From Candidatus Lokiarchaeum ossiferum (GTDB taxonomy: Archaea; Asgardarchaeota; Lokiarchaeia; Sigyniarchaeales; Promethearchaeaceae): DNA of 32,000 nt. The DNA is taken from contig CP104013.1 of assembly GCA_025839675.1 (NCBI GenBank), positions 510,001 to 542,000 on the forward strand. The letters run 5' to 3'. The translations under genes were made by a program, and so were the position numbers. The notes beneath the pieces are model-generated. The model was not told the origin of the DNA, ran no database searches, and was given only the letters and a program-made list of their open reading frames with translations. Below, one piece after another: positions 5,343-32,000 of the stretch; the first letter of the stretch is position 1; each line of letters begins with the position of its first letter.

Positions 5343-5612
5343 ATGGACTTGATCAATTACTTTGGGAATATCCTCGCAATGGAAACGGAGAAAAACCCCA
5401 TTGTTTGCAAGGGTTTAATTCGGCTTGCCCTAAGAGATATTTACCCAACCCCTCCCCAGCAATTGACCTTTTTCCATCTTAAAAAAATTTTTGAAGAGAG
5501 CTTACAAAAGAGATTACAAAAAATGCACATTGACAACGCAAATGAAATCTCCAATTTCTTGGTGGATGAGCTAACTAAAAAACAATCAATTCTGACATTG
5601 GGATTTTTATAA
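5343..5612 (+). CDS. Hypothetical small protein (89 aa)
   Basis: Its ATG directly abuts the stop of the upstream gene (TAAATG). GGAG lies about 10 nt upstream. It sits between the membrane protein and the kinase on the same strand. No motif recognised. Confidence 0.5.
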   Translation: MDLINYFGNILAMETEKNPIVCKGLIRLALRDIYPTPPQQLTFFHLKKIFEESLQKRLQKMHIDNANEISNFLVDELTKKQSILTLGFL

Positions 5613-5629
5613 AAAGGATAAAAATTTAA

Positions 5630-13050: not shown

Positions 13051-13054
13051 GAGG
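13050..13054 (+). promoter_or_regulatory. Shine-Dalgarno-like GGAGG for the 2220-aa gene
   Basis: In TAGGAGGAAATCATAATG, the GGAGG overlaps the upstream stop codon and lies 8 nt before the ATG at 13063. Confidence 0.6.
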
Positions 13055-13062
13055 AAATCATA

Positions 13063-16000
13063 ATGAATAACATATATCAAAAAACAAGAAAGAAACTCAT
13101 ATTTGGATTACTTTTCGGGTTGATACTAAATCAATATATATCAACTTCTTTCCTAACGACTTATAAACCATTAGATGACGAAGAAAACCAAACAAATTAT
13201 TCCTCATTCCTGGATGAACTCACTCCGCTAGTGAATCAATCATCTATTACCAACAGAAATCAAGAAGATGAAAATTTGATTCAAAACACACCACAATCTC
13301 CCGCACCATCACTTTTGGAACAAATTTATAGAGGAAAAGACCAATTCACAGGATTTATAAAAAATGAAGGACAATTAGGAGATTTCAACAGTTATGTGGA
13401 ATATTATCACAATTATGAAAAGGGTAAACTCGGATTTGGAAGAAATCAGCTTCATTATGTTTACGCTCCCGATGCCTTGAGCACAGCAAGCACGAGTTTT
13501 TCAGTTCAATTTTTAGAGATCCCCGATCCGAAGATTCAAGCCTTTGATCAGAAATCAAGCTATCATAATATTTTGACAGCAAATTCAGATTTTGCACGAC
13601 TTCATTCCTACGAAACCTTAAAATATACTAGCCCTTCATTTAACATCGAAACGGAATTTTTTGGAGGAGATCATGGCAACATTAATGGATTGATTAAACT
13701 TCCTTCAATTTCAGCCTTGAAACAAGTTGTAATTCGAACTTCCGCTGGATTAAGTACCCATGTGATTGATAATCAGATTCAAGTTACACGGGAGAAATCA
13801 TCTGAAGTCCACCAAAACCCTCTTTTGTCTTTGTCCGAAATCTATGCATTTAGTGAGCAAGGAGAACTTTATGAATTGGGCTTCATTCAATTGGATTCTT
13901 TGTCAGTTGGATTCCAACTCATGAATATAAAAGATCCTGGACCATTTTATTTATACTTCGGTTCAATTCTCCCCGGAATGCAGAAAAATTCCAAGTTACC
14001 TCAATTTCAATCAACTCTAACCCAGCCATGGAGTGCTGCTGACGATGAAGATCCTCCCATCATCACCAATGTGAATTATGATCCTCAAGATCCGACCCCA
14101 TTGGACAATGTAAAAATAGTCGCCGATATAGAAGATATTTCTGGGATTAGTTTAGCCCGAGTCTACTACAGAGCATCAACCGATTACATTTGGCATAATT
14201 CCACCATGATTTTTGATACAGGAACAACATATAATGCATTCATTGGATATTTTGAAATGGAAACTTATATTGATTATTTTATTGAAGCGTTCGATAATTC
14301 AGTTGCATATAATTCGATCAATTCTACTACAGAATATTTTTACATCGATGTAATTGATGATGAAAACCCTCCAGAGGTTTCGAATATCCAAGTTTTACCG
14401 CTATATCCAAATGATCAAGATTCGATTTTAATTCAAGCCGAAATTATTGATATAAATAGTTTTTCTGCAGTCGTTCAATATCGAAACAAATCAAATGTTT
14501 GGAATAATGCAGATATGAATCATATAAGTGGAAATATTTATCAAACTTCCATATCAAATCAAACAGGCTTTGTAGAATATAATTTTTGGGTACAAGACAA
14601 TTCAATGAATATGAACAGTGCGGTCGTAAAAAATTCTAGTGAAAATTTTAACTTCACTTCAGTCGATACTCAACCTCCTGTTTTCAAATATCAATCTATC
14701 GTCCCAGGGTTTCCTACACCAGATGAACTTGTAACCATAACTACAAGTATTGAAGATAAAGGGCAAATGCAAAATGTGACTATAATTTATCAAGTTAATA
14801 GTGGACAATGGCAAAGAAAAAATATGACAAAGAAATCTGATTCCTTATATGATTATATAATTGGGCCCTTTGTATTATCCGACCACATAAATTACTATTT
14901 TGAAGCCTATGATACATTAAATCATCAGATAACTGTCGATAATAGTGGAATGTTCTATTATTTTGATGTAGAGGATAGATCTACAGCATTTTCTGATTCC
15001 TTCTGTTCATATTTTGGAGCAGGTGCTCATTCTAAAATTAAAACCCTCCAAGTAGATTCGGATGGATTTATTTATATTGCTGGTTCAACTCAGTCTTATA
15101 ATTTTCCCAGCACACCAGGTTCTTTCCAAGAAACGGGATTAAGTGAAGTGTGTGCATTTATCACAAAATTAACTCCAGATGGACGGGAAATGATTTTTTC
15201 CACATTAATAGGCTCTTCAACCAATGCCGTCTCGGCAGGAAATGAAACTATCATTGAGGATATTGCCTTAGATTCATCGAAAAATATTTATGCGGTGGGA
15301 TCCACAATGGGGCACAATTTTCCAATACAAGGCGAAGATGGGAAAACTCCCGTTCAAGAATACTGGACTTGGGGTTTAGAAGGATTTTTGTTGAAACTGA
15401 AACCAGATGGCACAGAACTTAGCTTTTCCACCTTTATTGGGGCGAGCACTGGACATGAAAATATTACCGCTGTGATTTTAGATGAACTCCGAAATATTTA
15501 TGTAACTGGTTCATCAACCTCATCTGATATGCAAACGACCGATGGCGCTTATCGCACTTCGAGTGACTTTACACTTCCAGCAGGAAATGCTTCAGGCATT
15601 TTGGCGAAAATTTCTCCTGATGGGACCACGTATGAATTCCTAACCTATTTGGGAGGTGAACGGGATTTTCGTCCCATGGATATTGCGTTAGACAGCCAAA
15701 AGAATATTTTTGTGGTAGGAAATGCAGAATGTGGTATGATGGATTGTACTATAGGAAGGATTGGCCCCTATCGGGAAGGTTTTATAACGGAAATCAGCAA
15801 TGATGGAACATCGCTTATCATGCAAAGATTCACTATTGGAAATGAATCCGAATATATTGAATCAATAGTAATTAGTAAAGATGATTACCCAATCGTGGCT
15901 GGTTACACAAATTCTTCCAGGTTGGAGTACGAATTTGGAGGGTTGTATTCTGAAAATATGGGGGGAAAATATGATGGATTTATTCTTACTTTAAAAAATG

Positions 16001-19000
16001 ATTCATCCGGAGAAATCTGCGCGGGAACATTTATTGGATCCGATCAGAATGATCAAATATATTCACTTTCACTAGATCCCCAAAATTCCGTATATGTCGG
16101 GGGAATTACAACATCCACCAATTTAACGCTTACGACTAATGCCTTCCAAAGTACCCATGGAGGCAGATTTGACAATTTCCTTTATAGATTGGATTTCAAT
16201 CTAACCACCATCCTCTATGGAAGTTATTTTGGAGGAAATTCGACTGATATCCTAACGGATATGGTATTAGATCCGAATTACTTCGCATATTTTGTCGGCG
16301 AAACAAACTCTCCCAATCTAGCAACACAGGATAATGCACTTCAAAGCACTTATCAAAGTGAAAGCTCGTATTTATTAAAAATCACACCACAACTTGCTGA
16401 AACCTCTGTGATGTTAAGTTCCCCGGAATTTATTCTGGCAGAACTTGGAAGTTCATTCAATATCTCATTGGAAGTTCAATCCTTCACAGGGATTTTTAAT
16501 GCATCGATTCATTATACCCTAGATAATCAGAATTGGATAACCATCCTCGCAGAAAGAAAAAATCTCACACACTATTCAGCTAGCTTAGGCCCATTTACAG
16601 CAGGTTCTAAAGTTAAATATTACCTTGAGGTCCGAGATCTTGCCGCACCAATGGAGCCGGTGATCAATAATAACTCAAATCAATTTTATCACATTATTTA
16701 TCCTCAAGCGGATTCCAGCGGGGATTTTTCTTCCCCAAACTGGAATATGTTTGAAGCCGTACAAGATAAAAATATACTTCGATTTACAGGAAATGCCACA
16801 GATTTAAACGATATTGCAGTCGTCAAGTTACATTATTCAGTAGATGGGGGTGATGAGAAGAGCTTCATATGTCAAGAGATTGAAAAGACTTATAATGAAG
16901 GAGAAATCAAGTGGGAAGTTACTTATCAAGCAATACTAGACTTTCTTTCGTTCGGAGTCGATGTAGAGTATTGGTTTCAAATTTTAGATAATTCGCTTAA
17001 TCACAATTCTATAAATTATCCAATCTATCATATTAGTTTTGAGGAAACGGATATAATCCCCCCCAATATCACTGAATTGACATTATCACCGATTTCACCA
17101 ACACAGAAAGATGAGATTCTGGTGACCGTCACAATTAGAGATGAGAACTCTATTGGATATACATTTATTAGGTATAGTCTTAACGGAGGAGTTTGGCAAG
17201 AACAAACACTTCAAGCATTAGGCAATGATCGATTTCAAGCAAATCTTGGTAAATTCCAGGAGTTCACCTCCATAAAATATTTCATTGGAGCATATGATCT
17301 TTCGGTAAATTCAAATTACCAAGAATTGAATAATGAAGGTCAAAACTATACTGTGCAAATCTGCTATCTCGATGAAATCAAACCAGAAATTCTGAACCTA
17401 AATTATCCAACAGAACCAATGTATACCAATCAACAGATATCAATTCAATTTGATGTATTTGACATATCAAATATATCTCAAGTAGAAATATTTTATCAAT
17501 ATATGGGAGAAAACTGGAATAGCTCAATTTTATCGCTAAACCAATCAAATCATTATGATTTAGAATTCAATACAGGAGAAATTAGAAATGAATTCCAATT
17601 TTATCTCCGAGTAGTTGATAATTCTTCTCTCCATTTGTCAAAAATTTATAATAACCAAGGAGTGTTTTATAAGATTCCAATTCTTTCTCGTGAAACGGGT
17701 TCAATATGGCTAGACCATTCCACTAATGGAAATGAATTTTCAAATATTCGGGTTTTTGATCAAGATCAAAATCTAAATCGAAGGGAAATAGATTATATAA
17801 CAGTGAATGTAACATCCTCAGTAAATTTGGTTGAAAAAGAAATCCCTCTTTATGAATCAGGACTGGATACGGGTGTTTTTGTCGGTATACTCTGGTATAG
17901 TCCATTTAACGAAAACTTGGACATACAAATAGAGAATAGTGCAAATATATCAATCCAATATATAGATCCATCTTCTAATGAATTGGAGATTCAAGCAATT
18001 ACCTACAATTTCCAATGGTATGCCACTTCAATAGCACGCCTTACTTTTGATAAAATGACCTATTCGTTTAATGAGTCAATTTTAACTTCAATTATTGATC
18101 TCGATGCAAACAACAATTCAACAGAAATTGATACAGCTTACGTCCGAATTCGATCCACTTTAGATCGGAATGGTTTCCTTTTACCTCTTACAGAAACCCA
18201 TCCAAATTCAAGTGTATTTTTCGGTGCTTTTTCTGTCAATGAACAAGAAACGCGTTCTGAGAGTTATGAGATTTTTTGTTGGGATGGATGGAATGTATTT
18301 GCTGAATACTCAGATACTACACCCACGGACACAGTTCAATCTACTCTTACTGAAGAAATTAAATACTTATCGGATTCATCTCAAAATTCTTTTCATACTA
18401 CAATCTTCCCCATTCAACCTAAAAATGGTGATTTGGTAAGATTTATCATTAGCGTTCCTCTAAGGATGGGAGTTGAAGAAATTACAATTCATACAGAACA
18501 AAACCAGATAATTTTGAATAAGAGTTATTCATCCATATATGAAACAGTGTTTGTAGGATGGATTCTTGCTGAGGAAGAGGACCTTAAACTCACCTATCAT
18601 ATAAAATTGAAATTATTGGATGGAGAATTAATCGAAAGTAAGGATTACACTCTTGATCTATTACCAGCGAAAATTAATTTCCAATGCCATTATGAGCAAA
18701 GTGGAAGTAAGGCAAAGTTTGCTTTATTGTCATTTAATTCAAGAGATCAACCACTACCTGATGTGGAATACAATATATGGGGTTATAATTTAAACAATTA
18801 TCAATATCTTGATATGGTGGTTATCACATCTGAATCGGGAATTTCAACGTTTTATCTTGATCCAACAGAATTAGATTTGTCCATAGGGAGTTATAATATT
18901 TGGTTTGAAGTATCTAAACCAGATTATGATAATGTCATTATTGAATACATGATTGAAATTGTGTATGGAATACCTATGCATCGAGGGAGAAATGCAATTG

Positions 19001-19725
19001 AAATTGATTATAATTTAAAAATATCTTCGGTATGCACTGCAAATTGTTGGTTAGTGCTTGATGTCATGGACACCCCCGACTTAAGTAAGAAATATCAAGG
19101 ATATAGTTCATTACCATCTACATTTCTCGCGATGTATATCTATCAAGATTCTCCAAAAGCAAATTGGCCGGTTACTTCGATCACAATAGATACAGCTACT
19201 TCAAATGGTGCGTTATGGCAAAGTACATATGATTTTGAATCAGGTCAATTTATAACGAATGATTTCGAGGGAAATGTAGAAGTTGTTGAAAAAAACGAAT
19301 CTCAGTGGAAGATCCGAAATTCATATATGTATAAAGGATATTGGACTTCCCTGCATAGATCGAATAGGATATATCTAGCCGACCAACAACGATTAGTGAC
19401 AACTTACTATTCCAGCGATTATCAATACAGTGTCGAAAAACTTAATTTCTTCGCAACTTATGGTGTTATTGCCCGATCAGAGTTTGTCAATCAATATTAT
19501 GAGGAGGATTCACCCTATTATGCTGCGAGCATCCCTTCATCGGATAGTATAATTTCGATGGTAAGAAATTTTACCAACCTATCTCAATCATCCAATTTAG
19601 AACCTGTTGAATCCGATCAACAAAAAAATGAAATACACGTTGGATGGGAAATTGTACTCGGGGTAGGGTTGATTGGGATAATTTCGAGCTCACTGGGTGT
19701 ATTAGTTAAAAAGAAACGAACATAA
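13063..19725 (+). CDS. Giant surface protein (2220 aa): signal peptide, tandem ~100-aa Ig-like repeats, SBBP-type beta-propeller repeats, C-terminal TM anchor
   Basis: Signal peptide is KKLIFGLLFGLIL. Repeats begin PP.I.N / PPEVSN / PPVFKY / PPNITE / KPEILN (about 14050-14975 and 16410-17690). Beta-propeller repeats of the YIAGSTQSYNFPSTPGSFQ, YAVGSTMGHNFP, YVTGSSTSSDMQTTDGAYRT and YVGGITTSTNLTLTTNAFQSTHGG type span about 15000-16390. The C-terminus is IVLGVGLIGIISSSLGVLVKKKRT. Roughly 40 N-x-S/T sequons by hand count. Confidence 0.85.
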   Translation: MNNIYQKTRKKLIFGLLFGLILNQYISTSFLTTYKPLDDEENQTNYSSFLDELTPLVNQSSITNRNQEDENLIQNTPQSPAPSLLEQIYRGKDQFTGFIKNEGQLGDFNSYVEYYHNYEKGKLGFGRNQLHYVYAPDALSTASTSFSVQFLEIPDPKIQAFDQKSSYHNILTANSDFARLHSYETLKYTSPSFNIETEFFGGDHGNINGLIKLPSISALKQVVIRTSAGLSTHVIDNQIQVTREKSSEVHQNPLLSLSEIYAFSEQGELYELGFIQLDSLSVGFQLMNIKDPGPFYLYFGSILPGMQKNSKLPQFQSTLTQPWSAADDEDPPIITNVNYDPQDPTPLDNVKIVADIEDISGISLARVYYRASTDYIWHNSTMIFDTGTTYNAFIGYFEMETYIDYFIEAFDNSVAYNSINSTTEYFYIDVIDDENPPEVSNIQVLPLYPNDQDSILIQAEIIDINSFSAVVQYRNKSNVWNNADMNHISGNIYQTSISNQTGFVEYNFWVQDNSMNMNSAVVKNSSENFNFTSVDTQPPVFKYQSIVPGFPTPDELVTITTSIEDKGQMQNVTIIYQVNSGQWQRKNMTKKSDSLYDYIIGPFVLSDHINYYFEAYDTLNHQITVDNSGMFYYFDVEDRSTAFSDSFCSYFGAGAHSKIKTLQVDSDGFIYIAGSTQSYNFPSTPGSFQETGLSEVCAFITKLTPDGREMIFSTLIGSSTNAVSAGNETIIEDIALDSSKNIYAVGSTMGHNFPIQGEDGKTPVQEYWTWGLEGFLLKLKPDGTELSFSTFIGASTGHENITAVILDELRNIYVTGSSTSSDMQTTDGAYRTSSDFTLPAGNASGILAKISPDGTTYEFLTYLGGERDFRPMDIALDSQKNIFVVGNAECGMMDCTIGRIGPYREGFITEISNDGTSLIMQRFTIGNESEYIESIVISKDDYPIVAGYTNSSRLEYEFGGLYSENMGGKYDGFILTLKNDSSGEICAGTFIGSDQNDQIYSLSLDPQNSVYVGGITTSTNLTLTTNAFQSTHGGRFDNFLYRLDFNLTTILYGSYFGGNSTDILTDMVLDPNYFAYFVGETNSPNLATQDNALQSTYQSESSYLLKITPQLAETSVMLSSPEFILAELGSSFNISLEVQSFTGIFNASIHYTLDNQNWITILAERKNLTHYSASLGPFTAGSKVKYYLEVRDLAAPMEPVINNNSNQFYHIIYPQADSSGDFSSPNWNMFEAVQDKNILRFTGNATDLNDIAVVKLHYSVDGGDEKSFICQEIEKTYNEGEIKWEVTYQAILDFLSFGVDVEYWFQILDNSLNHNSINYPIYHISFEETDIIPPNITELTLSPISPTQKDEILVTVTIRDENSIGYTFIRYSLNGGVWQEQTLQALGNDRFQANLGKFQEFTSIKYFIGAYDLSVNSNYQELNNEGQNYTVQICYLDEIKPEILNLNYPTEPMYTNQQISIQFDVFDISNISQVEIFYQYMGENWNSSILSLNQSNHYDLEFNTGEIRNEFQFYLRVVDNSSLHLSKIYNNQGVFYKIPILSRETGSIWLDHSTNGNEFSNIRVFDQDQNLNRREIDYITVNVTSSVNLVEKEIPLYESGLDTGVFVGILWYSPFNENLDIQIENSANISIQYIDPSSNELEIQAITYNFQWYATSIARLTFDKMTYSFNESILTSIIDLDANNNSTEIDTAYVRIRSTLDRNGFLLPLTETHPNSSVFFGAFSVNEQETRSESYEIFCWDGWNVFAEYSDTTPTDTVQSTLTEEIKYLSDSSQNSFHTTIFPIQPKNGDLVRFIISVPLRMGVEEITIHTEQNQIILNKSYSSIYETVFVGWILAEEEDLKLTYHIKLKLLDGELIESKDYTLDLLPAKINFQCHYEQSGSKAKFALLSFNSRDQPLPDVEYNIWGYNLNNYQYLDMVVITSESGISTFYLDPTELDLSIGSYNIWFEVSKPDYDNVIIEYMIEIVYGIPMHRGRNAIEIDYNLKISSVCTANCWLVLDVMDTPDLSKKYQGYSSLPSTFLAMYIYQDSPKANWPVTSITIDTATSNGALWQSTYDFESGQFITNDFEGNVEVVEKNESQWKIRNSYMYKGYWTSLHRSNRIYLADQQRLVTTYYSSDYQYSVEKLNFFATYGVIARSEFVNQYYEEDSPYYAASIPSSDSIISMVRNFTNLSQSSNLEPVESDQQKNEIHVGWEIVLGVGLIGIISSSLGVLVKKKRT

Positions 19726-22958: not shown

Positions 22959-24188
22959 TCAGTGATGATTTAATTCAGGTTTAATTTTTTCAATTATTTG
23001 CTTTTTGATTTCTTCTATAGAACATACCTTCTTGTTAAGACCAAAATTTTTATCATAAGGCCATAAAAATGCGGAAAAATACACAGATCTCTTCAATTTT
23101 AAACTGTCTTGATCAATAAACAACACATCAAACCAACGTTGATATTTCTGTTCAGTATCATTAAAAAAAGTTTTAGCTAAATCCCCAAAGACTCTATCGC
23201 TCTGATAACCCCATCGAGCCAGTCGCTTATCTCTAAAATTGGTTTTTTTTCCAACATTCTTTGATATTGTCATGTGCAGTGGAATTATCTTCTCATTAAT
23301 CCTCCAATACATAATCCCCACTATTCCTTCATATTGAGTTTCATTTTTAATACATTTTTCAATCAAAGACTCAATGAGGGGATCAATTTCTTTTTCATTA
23401 CGATATATTTTTTGTTCATTCTTATCAAATTTGACACAAAAATTTGAATCCAAATCAAAGATTTGAGTATCAAATGTGATATAATTTGATATCCAATCAT
23501 CCCAATTAAGAAAATCATCATCTTCTAGTTCGAGTTTCAACCAATGGTAGTTTTTCTTCTCCATGAGTTCCCATGAATCAATAAAATTTTTCATTATAAA
23601 CTGAATTTTATTATATTGGCGAAATTTGAAGAAATTCTTCACATTTGGTTGATTAAATTGTTGTAAAAATTGCATAAATCTTTTTTCTTCCGAGGAAATT
23701 CTATAATCGGAGAAATTTATCTCTTTTCTCCCATTTTCAAATATATTTTCAGCAAAAGAAATACTATCTGGGGATGGAGGTTTAATTTCTTGGATATTAG
23801 TATAATTCATTTCATCGTAATATGGGATATTCTCACTTCGTGAACGTACAAAATATTCAAAATAAGCCAAAAATTTGTTGAAATTGTCATTTGAATCAAA
23901 TTTTTTGACATCTAGGGGCCATACTTCTAATAATTTCAGAGAAAAAAAATTATCAACGAGTTTACCTACTTCCCCCGCATCATTTTTTAAATGACGTTCA
24001 ATTCGCTCCTTCATCAACTGAACTTTCTTCGTTGGATCTTTCTGTTTCTTCTTTATATAGTCATGACCTGATTTTCCTACATACAAAATGCAATTTTCGT
24101 TTTTAGTGAGGGGATCCAATCCACTAAAGCGATACACTCCAGGATTATTCAAAAATTCATAATCGGTGATTTTTGGTTCTTGTTTCAT
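22959..24188 (-). CDS. Hypothetical protein (409 aa) with an N-terminal GIY-YIG nuclease-like domain
   Basis: NPGVYRFSG...ENCILYVGKSGHDY...LMKERIERHLKN...LLEVWPL fits the GIY...YIG...R...H...E order of GIY-YIG nucleases (about nt 23900-24145). The remaining ~300 aa are unrecognised. Confidence 0.55.
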   Translation of the reverse strand: MKQEPKITDYEFLNNPGVYRFSGLDPLTKNENCILYVGKSGHDYIKKKQKDPTKKVQLMKERIERHLKNDAGEVGKLVDNFFSLKLLEVWPLDVKKFDSNDNFNKFLAYFEYFVRSRSENIPYYDEMNYTNIQEIKPPSPDSISFAENIFENGRKEINFSDYRISSEEKRFMQFLQQFNQPNVKNFFKFRQYNKIQFIMKNFIDSWELMEKKNYHWLKLELEDDDFLNWDDWISNYITFDTQIFDLDSNFCVKFDKNEQKIYRNEKEIDPLIESLIEKCIKNETQYEGIVGIMYWRINEKIIPLHMTISKNVGKKTNFRDKRLARWGYQSDRVFGDLAKTFFNDTEQKYQRWFDVLFIDQDSLKLKRSVYFSAFLWPYDKNFGLNKKVCSIEEIKKQIIEKIKPELNHH

Positions 24189-24455
24189 CTCTTAGCTTTA
24201 AATTATTGGATAAGGTTAAAAATGTATCGTCATTCAATTTTAGAACTAAATCTCCAATACCTATATTCAATTTATTCCCATCCTACTATAAATAAATATT
24301 GCTTAAATGAAAATTTTATTCGATTTTAGTTAAATATTATTAAAATAGGATATAAAGCATAATTATCAGTAAAATAGATATTGAAACATAAAATTTGGAG
24401 CATTTAGTTAATGAAATCTTATTCTTATAAAAAATAAGTTTTTATAAATTTATTA

Positions 24456-24483
24456 GGGGTTCGATTCCCCCTCAGAGCCGCCA
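24456..24483 (+). other. Isolated tRNA 3'-end fragment (T-arm, acceptor 3' strand, CCA); putative att core, not a functional tRNA gene
   Basis: The sequence is GGGG-TTCGATT-CCCCC-TCAGAGCC-G-CCA, with a canonical T-loop TTCGATT flanked by G4/C4-5. The upstream sequence (AAAATAAGTTTTTATAAATTTATTA) cannot supply D or anticodon arms or a complementary 5' acceptor strand. Confidence 0.65.
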
Positions 24484-24488
24484 ATCTC

Positions 24489-24506
24489 GTATTACAAGTG
24501 TAATAC
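24489..24506. repeat. Perfect palindrome GTATTACA-AG-TGTAATAC, 5 nt after the tRNA fragment
   Basis: The 8-bp arms are exact reverse complements. A further copy of the arm TGTAATAC lies at 24536-24543. Confidence 0.6.
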
Positions 24507-24905
24507 GTAATGATGTACCACAGGTGTGTTACTGGTGTAATACACTGAAAAAATCTATAATTGAATTATTTTGATCTAATAATTATTCAATATTATAATT
24601 TTATTAATCATTATACCTAATTATGAAGTAATTATAGCTGATATTAAACAAATTTGTGAAATTAGTGAAAATAGGGAAGATTTTTTAGAAGAAATATGCA
24701 ATAAATGGTATCATATTTCGATATCCCCTTATCCTTATGACTTTTTTGTAGCAGATAGAATTAATAATTCTTGGTATCCATCTTCAATTGAAGTAAACAT
24801 CCTATAGTTATAATAGAATTTATTTAGCTTGTCAAAATAAAAGACCACATTTACTTAAAGTCATTTATTAATAATGTCTTAAAGGGTTTTCATGAATCTT
24901 CCTTG

Positions 24906-25652
24906 CTATAAATTGAAATCTGTAATGTATTTTTGTTTTGAAGTTTGTAGGACCCTCTGATTTTCTACAAACTCTTTAATTATTGCACTGATTAAATCAA
25001 ATATATCCTGAGAGTGCATAGATCTAGAATTAAATTTTATCTCACCAGAGAGGTATAAACAAACAGTTTGGTATCTATTGTTGTAGGAATAACGTATACC
25101 AATCATTTTAAGAGGATATTTTTTAATATTAATTACAAATTTAGTGTGATCTATTCGAATTGATCCTTTTCCCCCAATTTCAGTAAGATTAGTGTTTCCT
25201 GGTGAATTTGGAATTACTTTAATCTCGACTAAATCATATTTTGTTAGAATTTTTTGAAATTGAGAAATAAAAAATTCGATTTTTTCAAAATTTATATAAG
25301 ATTTCCCAAAAATCTCTAAAAAAAAGTTTTCAATATTCTTTTTTACTTTTTCGCTTATTTCAGAAGGTAACAATAAATAGGGAGTATCTAAATCAGTATT
25401 TACAACATATACATCAATTATTTCAATTTGAGGTGTTTTCTTCTTTACATAAGATTGATTGAATATTGTTCTTTTTATATCCTTTCCAAAAGTGAATAAA
25501 TATGCATTTTTATCAATTTGTCGCATTTTAATAAAATGGATTTCAAATTGTTCAAAATATTTGTTGTTTATCTCTTTTTGGAGAAATAACTGAATCTTTG
25601 ACTCAATTTTTTTTCTATGTTCATAAATTTTGTAAATTTCGAGTTTTGTCAT
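24906..25652 (-). CDS. Hypothetical protein (248 aa), co-transcribed with the upstream ATPase
   Basis: Its start overlaps the ATPase stop by 32 nt. No motif recognised. Lys/Ile/Asn-rich composition, as in its neighbours. Confidence 0.55.
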   Translation of the reverse strand: MTKLEIYKIYEHRKKIESKIQLFLQKEINNKYFEQFEIHFIKMRQIDKNAYLFTFGKDIKRTIFNQSYVKKKTPQIEIIDVYVVNTDLDTPYLLLPSEISEKVKKNIENFFLEIFGKSYINFEKIEFFISQFQKILTKYDLVEIKVIPNSPGNTNLTEIGGKGSIRIDHTKFVINIKKYPLKMIGIRYSYNNRYQTVCLYLSGEIKFNSRSMHSQDIFDLISAIIKEFVENQRVLQTSKQKYITDFNL

Positions 25653-26733
25653 TCAATTTTGCCTCAGTTCTAAAAAATATTTGGATATATGGTTCTAAAT
25701 TTGGATTAATAGTATAAAAAATTGATCTTCCTTCAGGGTGATAAATAACGAACTTCTTTTCTTTAAGTTGGGATAAATGGTAAGAAACAGTGGCTTTTGT
25801 AAGATTGAATTTTTCAATTAGCTTGGATGCATAAACTTTCTGATTTCGGGATAAAATTAAGATTTCCTTTAAAAAATTCTTATGTTGATTGCTTAATTTT
25901 TCTAATTCTGTTATAAGGCTTAAATTCATTTCATCTCTCGCAAAATTTATTGATTCGAGAGTAAATTCATCTAAATTCAATAGAAATTGCTTTTTCACAC
26001 TTTTTATGAAAAGTCGAATATACATTTCGGGATTCCCACCGGAATACTTGAAAAAAAAGGAGTTAAAACTCAAAATGTCTTGTTTATCTCCCTTAAATTC
26101 TTGAACCAATATATCAAGAAGACTTTCTGCATTCTTTTCTGTTAAAGAATTAATATAATAAGTATTAATATTAGGAAACAAATTTAAAATTTCATCATTA
26201 TTATAGAAAAAAGTATCCACTGCCCAAGATGATATTATAAGTTTATTTTTGAAGTAATTTTCTTTTGAAGAGAATATATTAAAGAAATCTTTTCGTTTTT
26301 CACAAGAATCAAACAATAAAATATTGTACAATTGAGAATCATTTAGAATTTCATCTAATTTCTCCGGATTGTCCACATTTTGCCAATCAATATAGTTTAC
26401 TTTTAAATTATCTTCAATTTCTTTAATTAAAGAGAGAATTGTATTAAGATAAAGTGTTTTACCACTACCTTTAACTCCGACAAGGGAAATATGGATTGGA
26501 TCATCTTGATTATTAATGAAATACCCAACACTTTTTCCTAATTTGGCGATTAAGTCAAGATCCAGTGCAAGATATTCTAGATTATGAAATAAATATTTTT
26601 TTGTTAGGTTATAATTTAATAAATAGTTTGGAAATCCTTGATTTTCTAACCAGGACATGTAATTTTCAAATTTTCCATCTTTTCCTTCTTTATACGACAG
26701 TTTGAAAGCTTTTCTTAAATCAGTGTTTTTCAT
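25621..26733 (-). CDS. P-loop NTPase (AAA+/Orc1-Cdc6-like or archaeal-ATPase-like) fused to a C-terminal winged-helix (ArsR-like) DNA-binding domain
   Basis: Walker A is GVKGSGKT (about nt 26455-26478). Walker B-like is YNILLFDSCE. The C-terminal KLIEKFNLTKATVSYHLSQLKEKKFVIYHPEGRSIFYTINP is an ArsR-type HTH plus wing (about 25683-25866). Confidence 0.75.
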   Translation of the reverse strand: MKNTDLRKAFKLSYKEGKDGKFENYMSWLENQGFPNYLLNYNLTKKYLFHNLEYLALDLDLIAKLGKSVGYFINNQDDPIHISLVGVKGSGKTLYLNTILSLIKEIEDNLKVNYIDWQNVDNPEKLDEILNDSQLYNILLFDSCEKRKDFFNIFSSKENYFKNKLIISSWAVDTFFYNNDEILNLFPNINTYYINSLTEKNAESLLDILVQEFKGDKQDILSFNSFFFKYSGGNPEMYIRLFIKSVKKQFLLNLDEFTLESINFARDEMNLSLITELEKLSNQHKNFLKEILILSRNQKVYASKLIEKFNLTKATVSYHLSQLKEKKFVIYHPEGRSIFYTINPNLEPYIQIFFRTEAKLNDKTRNLQNL

Positions 26734-26849: not shown

Positions 26850-26923
26850 GGGAGTTAATTCTAATCGTTTGATAGGTTCGAAATGTATTAATCATTTGAA
26901 ATTGAAAAAATGGATTGAGAAAA

Positions 26924-27199
26924 ATGTCAAGGTATAAGGTAGTAAAGGTTATAGATGGAGATACTTTCGTTGTTTCACCTGGTTGGTCATGGAAAGGCAA
27001 AAAAGGAAATCGAGTTAGACCTGAAGGGTATGATGCCCGTGAATTGAACCAATATGGAGGAAAAACAGATATGAAAAAACTTGAGAAACTTATCTTAGGA
27101 AAAACAATTGAAATCACTAAAAATATAAAATTTAGCTATAATCGGTTGTTATATGTTGTAAAATATCGAGGAAAGGATTTAAAGAATTCTATGAAGTGA
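26924..27199 (+). CDS. Miniature staphylococcal-nuclease (SNase/thermonuclease)-like protein (91 aa)
   Basis: KVVKVIDGDTFVV corresponds to the SNase VIDGDT Ca-site Asp. RVRPEGYDARE corresponds to R35/D40/E43 of FRLLLVDTPE. KFSYNRLLYVVKYRGKDL corresponds to YGRGLAYIYADGK with R87. The ORF track starts at the TTG at 26915; I use the ATG at 26924. Confidence 0.6.
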   Translation: MSRYKVVKVIDGDTFVVSPGWSWKGKKGNRVRPEGYDARELNQYGGKTDMKKLEKLILGKTIEITKNIKFSYNRLLYVVKYRGKDLKNSMK

Positions 27200-27228
27200 A
27201 GAGAAATTGTGGATGTGTGTGAAAAAAA

Positions 27229-27468
27229 GTGTATAGATTAACATATAGAGATAAAAATGGATACAAACGATATTGTAATTCGGGAAAATTGGTTCATCGT
27301 CATGTTGCCGAATGTAAATTAGGCAGAAAGCTTCGTCGAGGTGAAGTGGTGCATCATAAAAATCGAAATAAAATGGATAATAGCCGATCGAACTTGTGGG
27401 TATGTAAAAGTCAAACGCAACATGAATATTATCACAAAAAAGATAAACGAAACACTGGGAGATGGTAA
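27229..27468 (+). CDS. HNH endonuclease (small, HNH_3-like, 79 aa)
   Basis: VHRHVAECKLGRKLRRGEVVHHKNRNKMDNSRSNLWVCKSQTQHEYYH matches the pattern HR.v.e..lGr.l..ge.VHHkN.nk.DNr..NL......H. The start is GTG; there is no in-frame ATG upstream of the motif. Confidence 0.8.
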   Translation: MYRLTYRDKNGYKRYCNSGKLVHRHVAECKLGRKLRRGEVVHHKNRNKMDNSRSNLWVCKSQTQHEYYHKKDKRNTGRW

Positions 27469-30400
27469 ATATGTCAAAAACTGCAGTTCCTGTAAATAAT
27501 GAGTCTTTTACAGTCAAATTCTGGAAAAATTTAATAGATTATTATTTTGAAATGCCTAATTTATGGACAGAAGAATTTTTGAGTTTAAAGAACTTCTCCC
27601 ATTTTCAAAGCAAAATAATAGGGCAAAGTTTGAAAGATTGTTCGAAGTATAGGTCAGATAAGGCAACAAATATACGAAACGTATGGGGTGAGATTTTAAA
27701 AGAACTTCCAAAACTTGATCAACGCCTTGGCCAAATAATATATCGCTACATTAAAACCAAAGTCAAACAAAATATAGAAACCATAAATGCAAGCAAATTT
27801 GGATTTGAAAAAGAATTTGATGCACAATTACTGATGGAAAATCAAACAATTGATAGTCATTTTTCAAATATTAATAAAGAATCATTGAAGAAAGGAGAAT
27901 TCATAAGTACAGAGCATCAAGACCTCCTTCCGGCAACCTTAACTATCGAAACTGATCAAGAATCGAGAGAAATTAATATTCAATTGATGCAAGTTCTTCA
28001 TAAAGTATTTATTTCAAAAATTAGTAAAGAAAATCGAAGAAATGCTCAAAAATTCTTTGATTCAATGTTGGAAGGATATAAAATATGGGAAACACAAAAT
28101 CAAGGGAAAAAGAATTTTATTTCCCGTTCAAAAGACCAATATAAGAAATTAAAAAAGAATCTAAACATTCTAAAAGAATACTTAACTTCAGGGGAATTGA
28201 AAGATATATATTCTGAGCTGGTTGAAACATTAAATAAAACCTCATATAAAGGTGCCAGTTTTCCTTCATTTCCTGGAATTATTCGTAAGGAAGATCTTCA
28301 ACATGCTCCCCCAACAAATTTGGATCTGTTTCAATTTATAATCCCAGCATTCGGTATGGGATGGGACTTTAATAAGAATATTTATCTCAATTTCATTGGA
28401 ATTAATCAAGTACTTCTAGAAATTCAAAGAGAATTGGAAGAAGAAGATCCTAATTCATCTAAACTTCAAAAAATTAAGGAGATTCAAACCAAACTGGTGC
28501 AATTCTTTTCCAGAAATTACATAATTGACATAAGTGACTTTTCTCCCGATGATTTAATGGCAATATACGCGATAATGGAGGATTCTGGTAAGCAAAAAGA
28601 AATTTTTGGAGAAATATGCTCAGAATATAGAACTTCAATTGATGGGATACAATTATTTGACATTCAATTTGGGAGAAACAATTATCCTTTAGAAATTGAA
28701 ACGAGTAATGAAATTACGAACAATACTCTCAATGTCTTCATTATGGTGAATAATTGGGGAAAATCCAAAGAATTTCCTTGGAAAGATGGTGTGAATAATA
28801 TATTACCAGATATGTTGTTGACATTATTAGCTAATGCAGGTATTTGGCCAAGTAAAATTGCAGTTTATGTAAAGAGTATGGATTTTGAATTAGCCCAAGA
28901 CGAAAGATGGGATTATGAAAAAAGGATCTACAGAATATTGAAATCAATATTAGATGGTACGATACTTAAAGTTTTAATGGATCTTGGAGGAAAAGAAAAC
29001 CGAAACATTGACCAAGAGATGATTAGATTAAATTCAAATGATGATATCTTAGTCATCCCAATTCTTAATCAATTGTCTTCAAAATTAGGTAAAAAAAGCA
29101 ATCTCCATCGGTATTACTATGAATTAATTGAAGTTACTACAATCTTAAATCGTATTATCGATCATAAAGAATTCGGCCCAAGTGAGAATTTTTCATCCAA
29201 AAACATGTGTCTTACTCATATACAAGAAAAAATAATTAATTCAATACAAAGTCAGGACGAGAAAAACTGCTTTATCATTCAAATGTTCAATCGATTATTT
29301 GATATGAAGAATTTATTTGAAACAAACAATATGTGGAATAAATTTAATGAAAATGAACAAAAAATGATTTTACAATTATTTAATGAGAAGTTTTCTCAAA
29401 ATTTCGAGTTTCATGATGTGTATGATGTTAGTTATTCATCTCAAGAAGAAAACTTGAAATTGAGAGCGAGTCTTTTTGAAACAAAGTCAGGGACAAAAAA
29501 AATCCTCCCTTATTACTATATAATTCACAGGATATTACGAATTCGAGCAAAAGATACTCCATTACTAGATTTTTTAAAAGGTTGTGAGAATGATAGTATT
29601 GATTTATTCGAGCAAAAAATAAAGGAATATTTTGACGATCCCTTGACTAAAAAAGCTTTAACCTATTTACCGGGAATATTTGTTAAACCAGGTGCTTTAT
29701 TTCCACGTTTAATGAATACTTCTTCATCTTTGAGAAAAAACTTTGGTCTTGGATTGCATTTAAAGTTTAAAGAAGAAAAAACAACATATTCGGATGTTTT
29801 AGTAATCAATATTGAAGGAACGACGCTCAATAGTAATCAATTTGATGAAAATCAGCAAGAACGTATTATTCGAATTAGTGTTTATCAATATTCTTTGAAG
29901 AAGAAACCGAGAGTAATTTTTGATGAATTTTTCTTTAAAAATTCGACAAAAGAAGTGGATTACGATAAAATCATAGAAAATACCGTGATTTCCACTTGTG
30001 CATCCACTAATATCCCCATTATTGTACGAGCAAAAAACCGTTCAAAATCTGGTGATTGGTTAGCAAATAAAGTGGATACTGAGGAAATATCAAAAAACGC
30101 ATTAATCAATAATGAAACATGGCGTGATTTTATAAGATATTCAAGGAGTAAAGGAAATCAAGACAAGAATATACCCCTAGTTGGATATATCAAAAATTAT
30201 GTGCCAATTCCTTATGTGAAATTAAAATCATCTAATTCATCAGTTCGGGTTTTAAAGTTGAAGTTTATTTCTCAATTCGTTGAGCAAACCGAAATGGAAG
30301 AGTATGAATCTTTCATATACTTAATTTTCAAGGGAACTGATCAGAAAGGGACAAATTTACTATATGCTCATGCAAGTGCCTTGCTTTCTTTCACAAAAAA

Positions 30401-30617
30401 AGGGGATGCTCTCACAAATTCTGAAGAAAACAATATCTTTGATCTTCTTATTTTAAGTGCGGCACTCGGTGATGAAAAAAGAAGTATTGGTCTTTCTGGA
30501 TTAGAAAGATTATTTGTTTATCCTTATACGGATGTAAGCTTCCGGATATATGGTCCTGCAATATTCTTATATGGATTAGAGGCGATAACTTATGCAAAAA
30601 GAAATGAATACGAATAA
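27462..30617 (+). CDS. Large hypothetical protein (1051 aa), no recognisable catalytic or binding motif
   Basis: A long uninterrupted ORF. Its start overlaps the HNH stop (ATGGTAA) and its end overlaps the next ORF by 26 nt, implying translational coupling. The sequence is Lys/Asn/Ile/Glu-rich with no P-loop and no TM segment. Confidence 0.75.
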   Translation: MVNMSKTAVPVNNESFTVKFWKNLIDYYFEMPNLWTEEFLSLKNFSHFQSKIIGQSLKDCSKYRSDKATNIRNVWGEILKELPKLDQRLGQIIYRYIKTKVKQNIETINASKFGFEKEFDAQLLMENQTIDSHFSNINKESLKKGEFISTEHQDLLPATLTIETDQESREINIQLMQVLHKVFISKISKENRRNAQKFFDSMLEGYKIWETQNQGKKNFISRSKDQYKKLKKNLNILKEYLTSGELKDIYSELVETLNKTSYKGASFPSFPGIIRKEDLQHAPPTNLDLFQFIIPAFGMGWDFNKNIYLNFIGINQVLLEIQRELEEEDPNSSKLQKIKEIQTKLVQFFSRNYIIDISDFSPDDLMAIYAIMEDSGKQKEIFGEICSEYRTSIDGIQLFDIQFGRNNYPLEIETSNEITNNTLNVFIMVNNWGKSKEFPWKDGVNNILPDMLLTLLANAGIWPSKIAVYVKSMDFELAQDERWDYEKRIYRILKSILDGTILKVLMDLGGKENRNIDQEMIRLNSNDDILVIPILNQLSSKLGKKSNLHRYYYELIEVTTILNRIIDHKEFGPSENFSSKNMCLTHIQEKIINSIQSQDEKNCFIIQMFNRLFDMKNLFETNNMWNKFNENEQKMILQLFNEKFSQNFEFHDVYDVSYSSQEENLKLRASLFETKSGTKKILPYYYIIHRILRIRAKDTPLLDFLKGCENDSIDLFEQKIKEYFDDPLTKKALTYLPGIFVKPGALFPRLMNTSSSLRKNFGLGLHLKFKEEKTTYSDVLVINIEGTTLNSNQFDENQQERIIRISVYQYSLKKKPRVIFDEFFFKNSTKEVDYDKIIENTVISTCASTNIPIIVRAKNRSKSGDWLANKVDTEEISKNALINNETWRDFIRYSRSKGNQDKNIPLVGYIKNYVPIPYVKLKSSNSSVRVLKLKFISQFVEQTEMEEYESFIYLIFKGTDQKGTNLLYAHASALLSFTKKGDALTNSEENNIFDLLILSAALGDEKRSIGLSGLERLFVYPYTDVSFRIYGPAIFLYGLEAITYAKRNEYE

Positions 30618-32000
30618 AAATCCTATTCCAATTCCATTGTTATTTGGAGAAGCATACGAATTAGGTAATTATATGGGAATGCTTTCAGTTGTAGAAAGTA
30701 TTAAGAATAAAAAGATGCTCTCGTTAAAAGCAAATGGAGATGTCTTTAATCCCATTGAAATTGACGTAGAATGCATTCAAGATTTTAGTATCCAATTTGA
30801 GAGAATGTATGGAATAAATTTTATTGAACTAAAAGAGATCTTTGCTCGACTAAGACCTTTAGGAGAAACAATTTCAATTGAAGATCAACTTTTTCGATTT
30901 AACTCGGATTTACATGAATTTGGAAAGACAATTGTTCACAGATCAGTTAAAAGTCGTAGTAATTTCGTCAAAGTATCCCAATCTGAAATAGAGATATTGA
31001 TTAAAGAATTAACAAATGAAATTAATGGAGTAAATTTTGTATTAGAAATTATTTCCGGTTTTTTTGATGGTCAATCGTTTGTTGAATGGTGTGAATTGCA
31101 ATTTCATGATGATTTTAACATTTTAATTGAAATGAATCTTTATGATGAGCAAAATCCAGAGAATCACGCAAAAAAACCAGATCTAATGGTAGTTCAAAAC
31201 AAAAAAGTGGTTTTAATCGGCGATATTAAATCATATTTTCCATTCATTAGACAAAATCGAACAAATCGGTTAAAAGATGCCTTAAATCAAATTCCGGTCG
31301 AAGGATTAAATAGTGAAATGTTAAAAGATTCATCATTTGTTCCTGAAGCCCTGTATTTGAATGATTTTGTAAAACGATATAATCTTTTGACCCGGTATTT
31401 TAAAATGATGATGTATGTTGAGATCATTTATCAAAATAGTGATGAACTCTTTCAACAGAATCCTTTATTTAGTATTGTTGTGCTTCCTGGAAAATCTGTA
31501 TTATTCCATTTCCAAAATTATTCCGATTTTGAAGAAAAACGCGAAATCCTCTTGAAAACAATTCCGTTTAAGATCAAAGATCCAAATTCTTGTGATTATG
31601 ATATAAAAGAAAAGATACTTAATGAGCATCAAGTTGATTTGGAATATGATTTATTAACAGGAGATAGATATATCGAACCAAATAATGAGAAAGGACAGTA
31701 TCTAATACGAGAAAGATACTATGATAGACCAGAAGACCTAACGATTCCCTTAGGTAAAATCCCCGTTTTTTCAGCAGCGGAAGAAATAAAAACAGCAATA
31801 GAACCTCCTATTGCTAAAGGATGGAAAGGTACACCTGTGTTAAATATTCAAACACTACATTTGAAGAAAATAATTAAAAAGTTAACACAGGAAAACTCAA
31901 AGTTCCACTGTATTATTGATGGATCAGACCAAGGAACAGGTAAAAATTTCTCGTTTGCTAAATATATCAAGTATCTTGATAATGAGGATATAGAACAATC
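30592..32000 (+). CDS. Hypothetical protein, 5' part only (469+ codons, open to the window edge); PD-(D/E)xK nuclease-like motif and a P-loop-like motif
   Basis: Absent from the ORF track. I translated every codon from the ATG at 30592 to 32000 without meeting a stop (MQKEMNTNKNPIPIPLLFGEAYELGNYMGM...). KKPDLMVVQNKKVVLIGDIKSY (PD at 31177-31182, DIK at 31222-31230) fits the PD-x13-DxK pattern. FHCIIDGSDQGTGKNFS (31921-31947) resembles helicase/NTPase motif I, with Asn in place of Thr/Ser. Confidence 0.7.
   Translation, partial: MQKEMNTNKNPIPIPLLFGEAYELGNYMGMLSVVESIKNKKMLSLKANGDVFNPIEIDVECIQDFSIQFERMYGINFIELKEIFARLRPLGETISIEDQLFRFNSDLHEFGKTIVHRSVKSRSNFVKVSQSEIEILIKELTNEINGVNFVLEIISGFFDGQSFVEWCELQFHDDFNILIEMNLYDEQNPENHAKKPDLMVVQNKKVVLIGDIKSYFPFIRQNRTNRLKDALNQIPVEGLNSEMLKDSSFVPEALYLNDFVKRYNLLTRYFKMMMYVEIIYQNSDELFQQNPLFSIVVLPGKSVLFHFQNYSDFEEKREILLKTIPFKIKDPNSCDYDIKEKILNEHQVDLEYDLLTGDRYIEPNNEKGQYLIRERYYDRPEDLTIPLGKIPVFSAAEEIKTAIEPPIAKGWKGTPVLNIQTLHLKKIIKKLTQENSKFHCIIDGSDQGTGKNFSFAKYIKYLDNEDIEQ

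Follow-up and report, generated by a model that had tools for sequence, protein, structure and literature searches.

A stretch of 32,000 nucleotides (nt) from Candidatus Lokiarchaeum ossiferum (contig CP104013.1, positions 510,001 to 542,000; here called the window, and the source of all coordinates unless another contig is named) ends in four closely spaced open reading frames (ORFs) on the plus strand, at 26924–32000 (Table 1). They encode a small staphylococcal nuclease-like (SNase-like) protein, an HNH endonuclease, an orphan protein that we call C, and a large protein with nuclease and helicase motifs that we call D. A preliminary description, made from the letters of the window, had reported the four genes as one packed unit, with a 29-nt gap between the SNase-like and HNH genes, a 7-nt overlap (ATGGTAA) between HNH and C and a 26-nt overlap between C and D, and both the coordinates and the spacings match ours. 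The starts of the two large genes are ambiguous. NCBI and the homologues use M4 of C (27471), which leaves a 2-nt gap in place of the overlap with HNH, and gene callers begin D at 30604, so that it overlaps C by 14 nt; the coupling of C to both neighbours is tight whichever starts apply. Counted from 30604, the stop codon of D lies 3.6 kb on, outside the window. The locus was completed by an exact-protein look-up that led to a 167-kb Logan contig (SRR22273277_286) and to 12 kb beyond nt 32000. Following the DNA past the window edge, as the preliminary description had advised, completed D to 1202 aa and brought to light a fifth gene 20 nt past the D stop, on the same strand, which encodes a fusion of an FRG domain and a family-4 uracil-DNA glycosylase (FRG-UDG, 643 aa). 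The L. ossiferum operon comprises five co-directional genes: SNase-like, HNH, C, D and FRG-UDG. Our comparison with other genomes reveals that the conserved entity is not the four-gene unit but a two-gene, translationally coupled, archaea-only cassette, C–D, which is rare and was previously unannotated.

Table 1. Positions of the genes, protein motifs and other features at the C–D locus of L. ossiferum
Feature	Position	Strand	Description
SNase-like gene	26924-27199	+	91 aa; first gene, accessory; seen in L. ossiferum locus only
HNH_3 endonuclease gene	27229-27468	+	79 aa; accessory, translationally coupled to C
Gene C (NEF87_000470)	27462-30617	+	1051 aa; core component 1, orphan family
Gene D	30604-32000 (alternative start 30592)	+	Residues 1-465 of 1202 inside window; core component 2
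Most conserved C motif	28245-28367	+	Y262-x-G-K/A-S-F-P-x-F-P-G ... G298-x-G-W301; invariant in alignment A1
Rossmann-like, MID-like segment of C	29043-29441	+	Residues 528-660; beta-alpha-beta-alpha-beta-alpha-alpha-beta in model; invariant H549, Y553, Q607
RNase H-like (PIWI/NurA-like) C-terminal domain of C, predicted	29754-30593	+	Residues 765-1044; order b1-b2-b3-a-b4-a-b5 in model
PD-(D/E)xK core of D	31177-31230	+	P192-D193 ... G206-D207-I-K209; invariant in 8/8 members
Helicase motif I (Walker A) of D	31924-31947	+	S441-D-Q-G-T-G-K447-N448
Divergent P-loop ATPase-winged helix-turn-helix gene	25621-26733	-	370 aa; Walker A and ArsR-type winged helix-turn-helix
tRNA-like 3' fragment	24455-24487	+	T-arm, acceptor strand, CCA; weak Rfam T-arm match
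FRG-UDG gene	L001 16771-18702 (~34.2-36.2 kb in window coordinates, outside window)		Co-directional with D

Relatives of C were collected with HMMER, in an exhaustive scan at E ≤ 1e-3 that covered 1.84 billion representative proteins and yielded 13, seven of them below 1e-30. The exhaustive scan was required because AT-rich words saturate the candidate list of word-indexed searches; run with C, with D or with the C alignment, such searches found the query itself or one relative only, and a D-profile scan of genome contigs gave a single locus that was already known. Full-length members of the family measure 727–1121 aa and are 18–29% identical to C, the Lokiarchaeial relative reaching 56%. The named hosts are Lokiarchaeum, Odinarchaeota, Archaeoglobus, Thermococcus chitonophagus, Thermococcus spp. 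and Pyrococcus kukulkanii. Every named member is annotated as hypothetical, including NEF87_000470, to which C is 100% identical.

Genomic context, looked up for nine family members, places a D homologue directly after C wherever downstream DNA exists, its start falling −29 to +5 nt from the end of C. This pairing is present in nine independent loci (window/L001, L007, L012, L013, L014–16, L017–18, L019, L020 and L028), which belong to Lokiarchaeia, Archaeoglobus, Thermococcus and unclassified archaeal contigs, and on the Odinarchaeota contig JBHLPY010000149.1 (L011) the sequence stops inside C. The D homologues of the paired loci (941–1239 aa) are alignable to D over its whole length, and the identities of the two proteins fall in parallel (56/62%, 24/31% and 20/23% for C/D). 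Synteny that might have been confined to L. ossiferum, a doubt raised in the preliminary description, is conserved in other genomes. The phylogenomic profiling that it had suggested for the 1051-aa protein bears out co-occurrence with the nuclease–helicase but not with the SNase-like and HNH genes: seven loci, all those other than L. ossiferum and the second Lokiarchaeial locus (L007), carry C–D with neither of them. In T. chitonophagus and in L028 the pair is a stand-alone two-gene insertion among housekeeping genes. It lies directly downstream of the aIF5B (IF-2) gene in L020 and L017 (T. chitonophagus and one related metagenomic contig) and beside a diphthamide-synthase gene in L028 (a Thermococcales-like contig), so that the same cassette occupies different sites.

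Elsewhere the pair has neighbours of a defensive kind, namely a prokaryotic Argonaute (pAgo) with a Schlafen-like gene, McrBC with a DEAD helicase, an SMC/AAA_21 ATPase, and Mrr and Cas6. In the first of these contexts (L011, 7099–13013), the C member lies some 500 nt downstream of the gene for a canonical pAgo (801 aa, with a Piwi domain) and near a Schlafen/AlbA_2 gene, so that a classical Argonaute and the Argonaute-like orphan share one island. The C–D loci contain no methyltransferase gene, and no CRISPR array or other repeats were found. Rarity, patchy occurrence, a self-contained cassette and defence-gene neighbours are the usual signature of immune modules; C–D shows all of these, its patchiness extending across archaeal phyla, and is probably such a module. 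The earlier proposal of an undescribed immune system accordingly survives in part: the locus holds a defence-like module in an island context that corresponds to no named system, with C–D alone as its conserved unit.

The invariant motifs of D together with its superfamily 2 (SF2) fold show it to be a nuclease–helicase fusion with the nuclease domain at the N-terminus, a PD-(D/E)xK nuclease domain (residues 16–271) being joined to an SF2 translocase or helicase (motifs at 441–836). The two assigned domains leave about 350 residues at the C-terminus. The pattern PD-x13-DIK, first noticed in the window, holds throughout the family, in which P192, D193, G206, D207 and K209 are invariant. Residues E16/E19 on helix 1 (the FGExxE helix), R118 and Y265/K267/Y271 flank this core and are invariant as well, and the N-terminal region bears the signature of a complete PD-(D/E)xK nuclease of the RecB/Cas4-like type. 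Likewise, the NTPase/helicase-like motif I that had been noted at the window edge turns out to be a true SF2 motif, followed beyond the window by motifs Ia, II, III, V and VI. The blocks invariant in the family are Walker A (S-D-Q-G-x-G-K-N/T), motif Ia (P-R-K), Walker B ((D/E)-E-L-T-N-S), D-A-S, G-T-x-S-L-A-F-G and R-Q-V-x-K-R-x-R-G; no cysteine occurs among the 46 invariant columns of the alignment. Pfam recognizes ResIII in six of eight members and DEAD in two, and for D itself ResIII is the only family matched, marginally (23.0 bits against a cut-off of 22.5). In PADLOC one member of the family weakly matches type I-D Cas3 (3.9e-5), and nothing else was returned for D or its relatives; PDB sequence and profile searches with D were empty. 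Foldseek searches with the D model gave 253 SF2 matches at E ≤ 1e-3, led by UvrB (best, 3.8e-9), DEAD-box proteins, Chd1, RapA, RadD and RIG-I.

By comparison, C has no match in Pfam, PADLOC, NCBIfam or PHROGs, and none of 11 family members has a sequence-family match. The statement of the preliminary description that the gene set maps to no named system holds with these libraries, which offer nothing for C and generic helicase matches for D. An AlphaFold2 (AF2) model of C, built on a 13-sequence alignment, is confident, with a predicted local distance difference test score (pLDDT) of 79.5 and a predicted TM-score (pTM) of 0.81. In a Foldseek search of the PDB with this model, which gave no strong match but a coherent list, Argonautes take the five best ranks and seven of the top ten, the rest being two NurA entries and TM1739. 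The Rhodobacter sphaeroides Argonaute (RsAgo) is matched at E 1.5e-3 with a probability of 0.99, one of its alignments spanning 815 columns, and other matches include SIWI, the Thermus Argonaute (TtAgo, 727 columns), the Methanocaldococcus Argonaute (MjAgo, 888 columns) and the MID-PIWI part of QDE-2. The list also holds NurA (2ygk, 7f6d), TM1739, TdpAB and RNase H domains, and the viral structure library BFVD returned RNase H domains only. The model thus suggests that the C-terminal domain of C likely has an RNase H fold of the PIWI/NurA type, and the preceding Rossmann-like segment may be termed MID-like from its topology and position. Of the earlier characterization of C as a big unknown scaffold, "unknown" remains apt for sequence models, and the scaffold now has a predicted fold.

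The candidate active-site acids of this domain are E785 (b1), D821/E822 (b3) and D1024; b4 is followed by K858-N859 and by no acid. E785 and D821/E822 are kept in the Asgard and Archaeoglobus-type members and lost in four Thermococcales-type sequences (P0011–P0014), D1024 is kept in 10 of 10, and the position after b4 is K/Q-N, not Asp. As the family shares no DEDX tetrad, C is probably not the main nuclease. Its most conserved residues fall outside recognizable catalytic motifs. In addition to the motif around Y262–W301, they include N458, K494, D498, H549-x-Y-Y-Y553, Q607, S756, G908, Y968 and a C-terminal motif, GDEKG...RLFxxPYxD1024...P, of which the RLFxxPYxD part is reminiscent of RLPxTxYYAD in pAgos, although hhalign did not align the two.

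A precedent for the way in which such a pair could work is DdmDE, in which an inactive long-C pAgo with short 5'-phosphorylated DNA guides binds plasmid DNA and forms a D-loop, and then loads the helicase–nuclease DdmD, which degrades the displaced strand (10.1101/2024.05.10.593530). We favour the reading that C–D is an undescribed archaeal defence cassette that would work like DdmDE, pPIWI-RE or Cascade–Cas3 while being a member of none, a reading for which we see an evenly balanced likelihood. C would be the sensor of invader nucleic acid, most likely of a small guide paired to target DNA, or of a D-loop or R-loop; itself probably a poor or inactive nuclease, it would recruit or unlock D. 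D would then translocate along the displaced strand with ATP, and its N-terminal nuclease would cut that strand, with the destruction of plasmid or viral DNA as the outcome. This scheme builds on the observed gene pairing, the domain content of D and the fold class modelled for the C-terminal half of C; guide use, the interaction of C with D, the direction of action and the defence role we infer from the analogy. We see about even chances that C is a true Argonaute-like sensor. A bolder version holds that C founds an archaea-specific clade of the Argonaute/PIWI superfamily, invisible to sequence profiles, in which a guide licenses the fused PD-(D/E)xK–SF2 protein D, as an archaeal counterpart of DdmDE or Cascade–Cas3; we put this forward tentatively and think it somewhat more probably wrong than right. 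No prior description of C or D was found by accession or locus tag, nor in the pAgo, divergent-PIWI or archaeal-defence literature searched.

Several observations weigh against a guided, Argonaute-like mechanism. Foldseek is the one method that returned the Argonaute resemblance, with a best E-value of 1.5e-3, TM-scores of 0.13–0.28 and a root-mean-square deviation above 11 Å, and NurA matches C nearly as well as the Argonautes do. The Pfam Piwi (PF02171), pPIWI-RE and NurA models match none of the 11 C members at E ≤ 10, and PDB sequence and profile searches with C are empty. An hhalign comparison of C with a profile of seven plasmid-borne and Odinarchaeota pAgos reached a probability of 0.3%, and nothing was found with the whole length, the MID-PIWI part or PIWI only, in local, low-mact or global mode. 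The classical MID pocket, Y/H/R-K-Q-K, is not identifiable in C; the invariant H549, Y553, Q607, K494 and D498 do lie in or beside the Rossmann-like segment, with a spacing that differs from the MID motif. On the effector side, the AF2 model of D is poor overall (pLDDT 61, pTM 0.38), and its Walker A motif reads GKN instead of GK[ST] in most members (Asgard and Archaeoglobus-type), the Thermococcus and Pyrococcus proteins having GKT; it would be unusual for an active P-loop to carry Asn at the position of the Mg-binding Ser/Thr. Furthermore, DdmE is outside the top 50 PDB fold matches of C and DdmD outside those of D, and D has its nuclease ahead of its helicase, the opposite of DdmD, where the helicase is N-terminal and the nuclease C-terminal.

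The same structural matches admit a guide-independent helicase–nuclease machine, in which C would be a NurA-like nuclease or scaffold of RNase H fold and, together with D, would resect or shred DNA ends or modified DNA. Such a machine would resemble HerA–NurA, AddAB/RecBCD or a type III/ISP-like enzyme and amount to innate restriction without guides. When TM-scores are normalized to the target, NurA (2ygk, 7f6d), TM1739 and TdpAB score 0.26–0.38 in Foldseek, above the Argonautes; E785, D821/E822 and D1024 of the Asgard and Archaeoglobus members could form an RNase H-type site; and the sole Pfam family matching D is ResIII. The partners of NurA, however, are HerA-type hexameric ATPases rather than SF2 helicases, and since the four Thermococcales-type sequences have lost E785 and D821/E822, a nuclease-active C cannot be a requirement of the family as a whole. 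At about 730–1120 aa, C places a Rossmann-like domain ahead of the RNase H fold, and its co-linear matches of 727–888 columns to long Argonautes are unexplained by NurA, which has about 330 aa. No methyltransferase gene is adjacent in any locus. We consider the guide-independent machine unlikely, if still worth weighing beside the sensor–effector reading that we prefer.

The surroundings of the L. ossiferum operon are those of a typical AT-rich defence or mobile island. As the preliminary description had remarked, the locus is richer in AT than the left half of the window, GC content being 0.25–0.32 across 22–32 kb and 0.32–0.45 leftward. Also as first described, a tRNA fragment comprising T-arm, acceptor strand and CCA lies nearby, with weak Rfam support; it is possibly an integration scar at the island edge. 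Calling of tRNA genes gave none for the window or for the scanned loci, including the downstream extension (L010), and neither a second copy of the fragment nor a full tRNA gene occurs within 20 kb downstream. Right after the fragment, at 24488–24560, are two short imperfect palindromes, GTATTACAAGTGTAATAC and GTGTTACTGGTGTAATACAC, which may be an attachment (att) site or a terminator element. On the other side, FRG-UDG is followed by a minus-strand gene for an ArdC-like anti-restriction protein (PHROG anti-restriction, 5.6e-20; ArdcN and a MPTase-PolyVal zincin domain) and then by genes for a NERD-STAND protein of 1563 aa, a CBS protein and an SNF2 helicase. In the extension contig (L010, 15626–21605) the ArdC-like gene is divergent from the NERD-STAND NTPase gene, which sets anti-defence and defence back to back.

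Such an island could suggest that C–D serves the maintenance, replication or transfer of an integrated mobile element and not host immunity, for example as a replicative helicase–nuclease with an initiator or scaffold. The AT-rich locus 2.4 kb from the tRNA fragment and near the ArdC-like gene would suit that role, and so would the archaeal integrase and ribbon-helix-helix genes that lie 1.4 kb downstream of the pair in the Archaeoglobus-type locus. But anti-restriction and defence genes commonly share islands, and the pairs of T. chitonophagus and L028 stand alone, unaccompanied by genes for an integrase, Rep or capsid. Motifs of a polymerase, primase or Rep protein were not found, and C and D have no confirmed relatives among 2.9 million IMG/VR contigs, 50,697 phage records (INPHARED/GenBank) and 72,556 PLSDB plasmids. 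Stand-alone chromosomal cassettes and absence from the virus and plasmid collections make a mobile-element function very unlikely. The preliminary description had allowed that the genes might be core genes of a virus or plasmid family, and we rejected a virus or plasmid core module on these searches and on the BFVD result.

The accessory genes of L. ossiferum are lineage-specific add-ons to the C–D cassette. The HNH pattern recognized earlier is a genuine family match (Pfam HNH_3, 9.7e-10; PHROG HNH families down to 3e-12). The SNase signature holds in part: the motifs VIDGDT, RxxxxxDxxE and R are present and PHROG 452, "endonuclease", matches at 5e-6, but there is no Pfam or PDB match and pairwise BLAST against staphylococcal nuclease gives E = 6.6, so that the SNase-like identity of the protein is weakly supported by its sequence. 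In L007 a different HNH protein (HNH/HNH_5-type, 74 aa) is encoded 152 nt upstream of C; HNH genes are absent from the other loci, and neither the SNase-like gene nor FRG-UDG has a counterpart in any other C–D locus. The preliminary description had seen a four-gene unit with three nucleases, which comparison of the loci does not support as the conserved entity. That SNase-like, HNH, C and D, with or without FRG-UDG, form one obligate multi-nuclease system we judge highly improbable: spacings of at most 29 nt join the four genes, with 20 nt between D and FRG-UDG, and an HNH gene precedes C in the second Lokiarchaeial locus too, but the two HNH proteins belong to different families, the second is at some distance from C, and the seven remaining loci make do with C–D. 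FRG-UDG is of unusual architecture (FRG 6.7e-16, UDG 4.3e-7) and may sense or process modified or uracil-containing DNA. A speculative role for the extra nucleases, and for the glycosylase-like protein, would be to generate guides or to clean up the target.

Upstream of the operon, the divergent gene already described as an ATPase–winged helix-turn-helix (wHTH) gene indeed encodes a Walker A motif and an ArsR-type wHTH; the protein matches HTH_5 (2e-5), SdpR/ArsR (7e-11) and a Csa3-like wHTH (1e-7) and is a probable local regulator. The gene is not conserved alongside the C–D pair. In L007 the divergent gene (5573–6391, minus strand) instead encodes an HFX_2341_N/DUF6293 (Csa3-like) wHTH protein. 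The divergent genes of both Lokiarchaeial loci thus encode wHTH proteins with Csa3-like similarity and differ in their N-terminal domains, a P-loop ATPase in the window and an HFX_2341_N/CARF-like Rossmann domain in L007. The presence of such genes in both loci suggests ligand- or nucleotide-controlled regulation of the cassette.

Three further observations concern the window. Independently assembled contigs from SRR32148620, SRR32148621 and SRR32148622 (L002, L004 and L005) all start at 26897–26898, 27–28 nt upstream of the SNase-like ATG, and span 7–10 kb through the operon, the longest stopping at the far side of the ArdC-like gene; the shared start could be a strain-level junction or a cassette boundary, or a transcript start if the runs are RNA-seq. 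At 22959–24188 on the minus strand, a 409-aa ORF with no family match has an N-terminal GVYRF...ILYVGKSG that resembles, as a motif-level impression, the GIY-YIG nuclease motif. In the GC-richer left half, two adjacent giant ORFs of 1629 and 2220 aa (8161–19725, plus strand), the larger with faint SBBP repeat matches, are probably surface proteins unrelated to C–D.

Surveys point to under-sampling of archaeal immunity, as no system other than CRISPR and restriction–modification (R-M) is seen in about one archaeal genome in three (PMC12988326). In the present case, all that current family libraries pick up is the generic helicase signal of D. If the favoured reading is true, C–D would be a third lineage, besides DdmDE and pPIWI-RE, in which a sensor of PIWI type is tied to both a helicase and a nuclease of restriction fold, pointing to a design principle that recurs. 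The PIWI superfamily would also gain members in Asgard archaea, a lineage relevant to the origin of eukaryotic Argonautes. Because the two-gene cassette is present in the cultured T. chitonophagus and P. kukulkanii, near tractable Thermococcales, the hypothesis is directly testable, and a thermostable, possibly programmable nuclease–helicase system would have biotechnological interest.

Among known systems, DdmDE, with which Vibrio cholerae defends itself against plasmids, shares with C–D the two-gene form, a protein of Argonaute-type fold (in C predicted from weak matches) without an intact DEDX tetrad, and a partner of about 1200 aa that combines an SF2 helicase with a PD-(D/E)xK nuclease; neither system has a methyltransferase or a CRISPR array. 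In addition to the reversed domain order, C–D differs in that the sensor gene comes first, in that it is archaeal only and in that C exceeds DdmE in length by up to 350 aa. PADLOC-DB v2.0.0 gave no Argonaute- or DdmDE-type match for C or D, with none of the 11 C members matching at E ≤ 1. The pPIWI-RE triad, described by Burroughs, Iyer and Aravind in 2013, encodes a divergent PIWI protein alongside a nuclease of restriction fold and a DinG helicase; it is confined to bacteria, and its genes strictly follow the order restriction endonuclease (REase), DinG, PIWI (PMC3702460). C–D resembles it in coupling a divergent PIWI-like protein to a restriction-endonuclease-fold nuclease and an SF2 helicase, and in a patchy distribution typical of horizontal transfer. 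By comparison, C–D has the REase fused to the helicase and the PIWI-like gene first, in two genes, in nine of nine loci; D lacks a conserved iron–sulfur cysteine cluster and matches only ResIII/DEAD in Pfam, and C has no pPIWI-RE match.

Long pAgos are also co-encoded with nucleases, long-A with the Cas4-like ACE1 and long-B with a nuclease or PLD. They are the best fold matches of C and similar in size to its Thermococcales members (727–813 aa); both have an operonic nuclease partner, and one C member, that of Odinarchaeota, sits beside a canonical pAgo. C nevertheless has no Piwi hidden Markov model match and the low profile–profile probability given above, and it is partnered by a large helicase fusion instead of a small nuclease. 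HerA–NurA and NurA-like pairs such as TdpAB likewise place a PIWI/NurA-type RNase H-fold domain next to an ATP-driven DNA motor, but the motor of C–D is an SF2 helicase of monomer type instead of a HerA/FtsK hexamer, and C is two to three times as large as NurA. The fold matches of C include NurA, and membership was rejected on the SF2 partner. Cascade–Cas3 offers the parallel of a recognition component that passes DNA to a nuclease–helicase fusion, and one D member weakly matches Cas3; C–D differs in having a PD-(D/E)xK nuclease and in lacking an HD domain, cas genes and CRISPR repeats, on which grounds Cas3 membership was rejected as well. Type III R-M (Res/Mod) was set aside given the marginal ResIII match of D and the lack of a methyltransferase in any locus, and membership in Hachiman (HamA DUF1837 and HamB) or Nhi was rejected because PADLOC gave no match for the D family except the weak one to Cas3. 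The preliminary description had named Nhi and Hachiman as nearest in general logic; the predicted PIWI/NurA-type fold of C makes DdmDE, pPIWI-RE and Cascade–Cas3 the closer analogues. The resemblance to DdmDE and pPIWI-RE is one of presumed function, not of membership, and by this analogy C–D is probably a new version of the design in which a PIWI-type sensor directs a helicase–nuclease effector.

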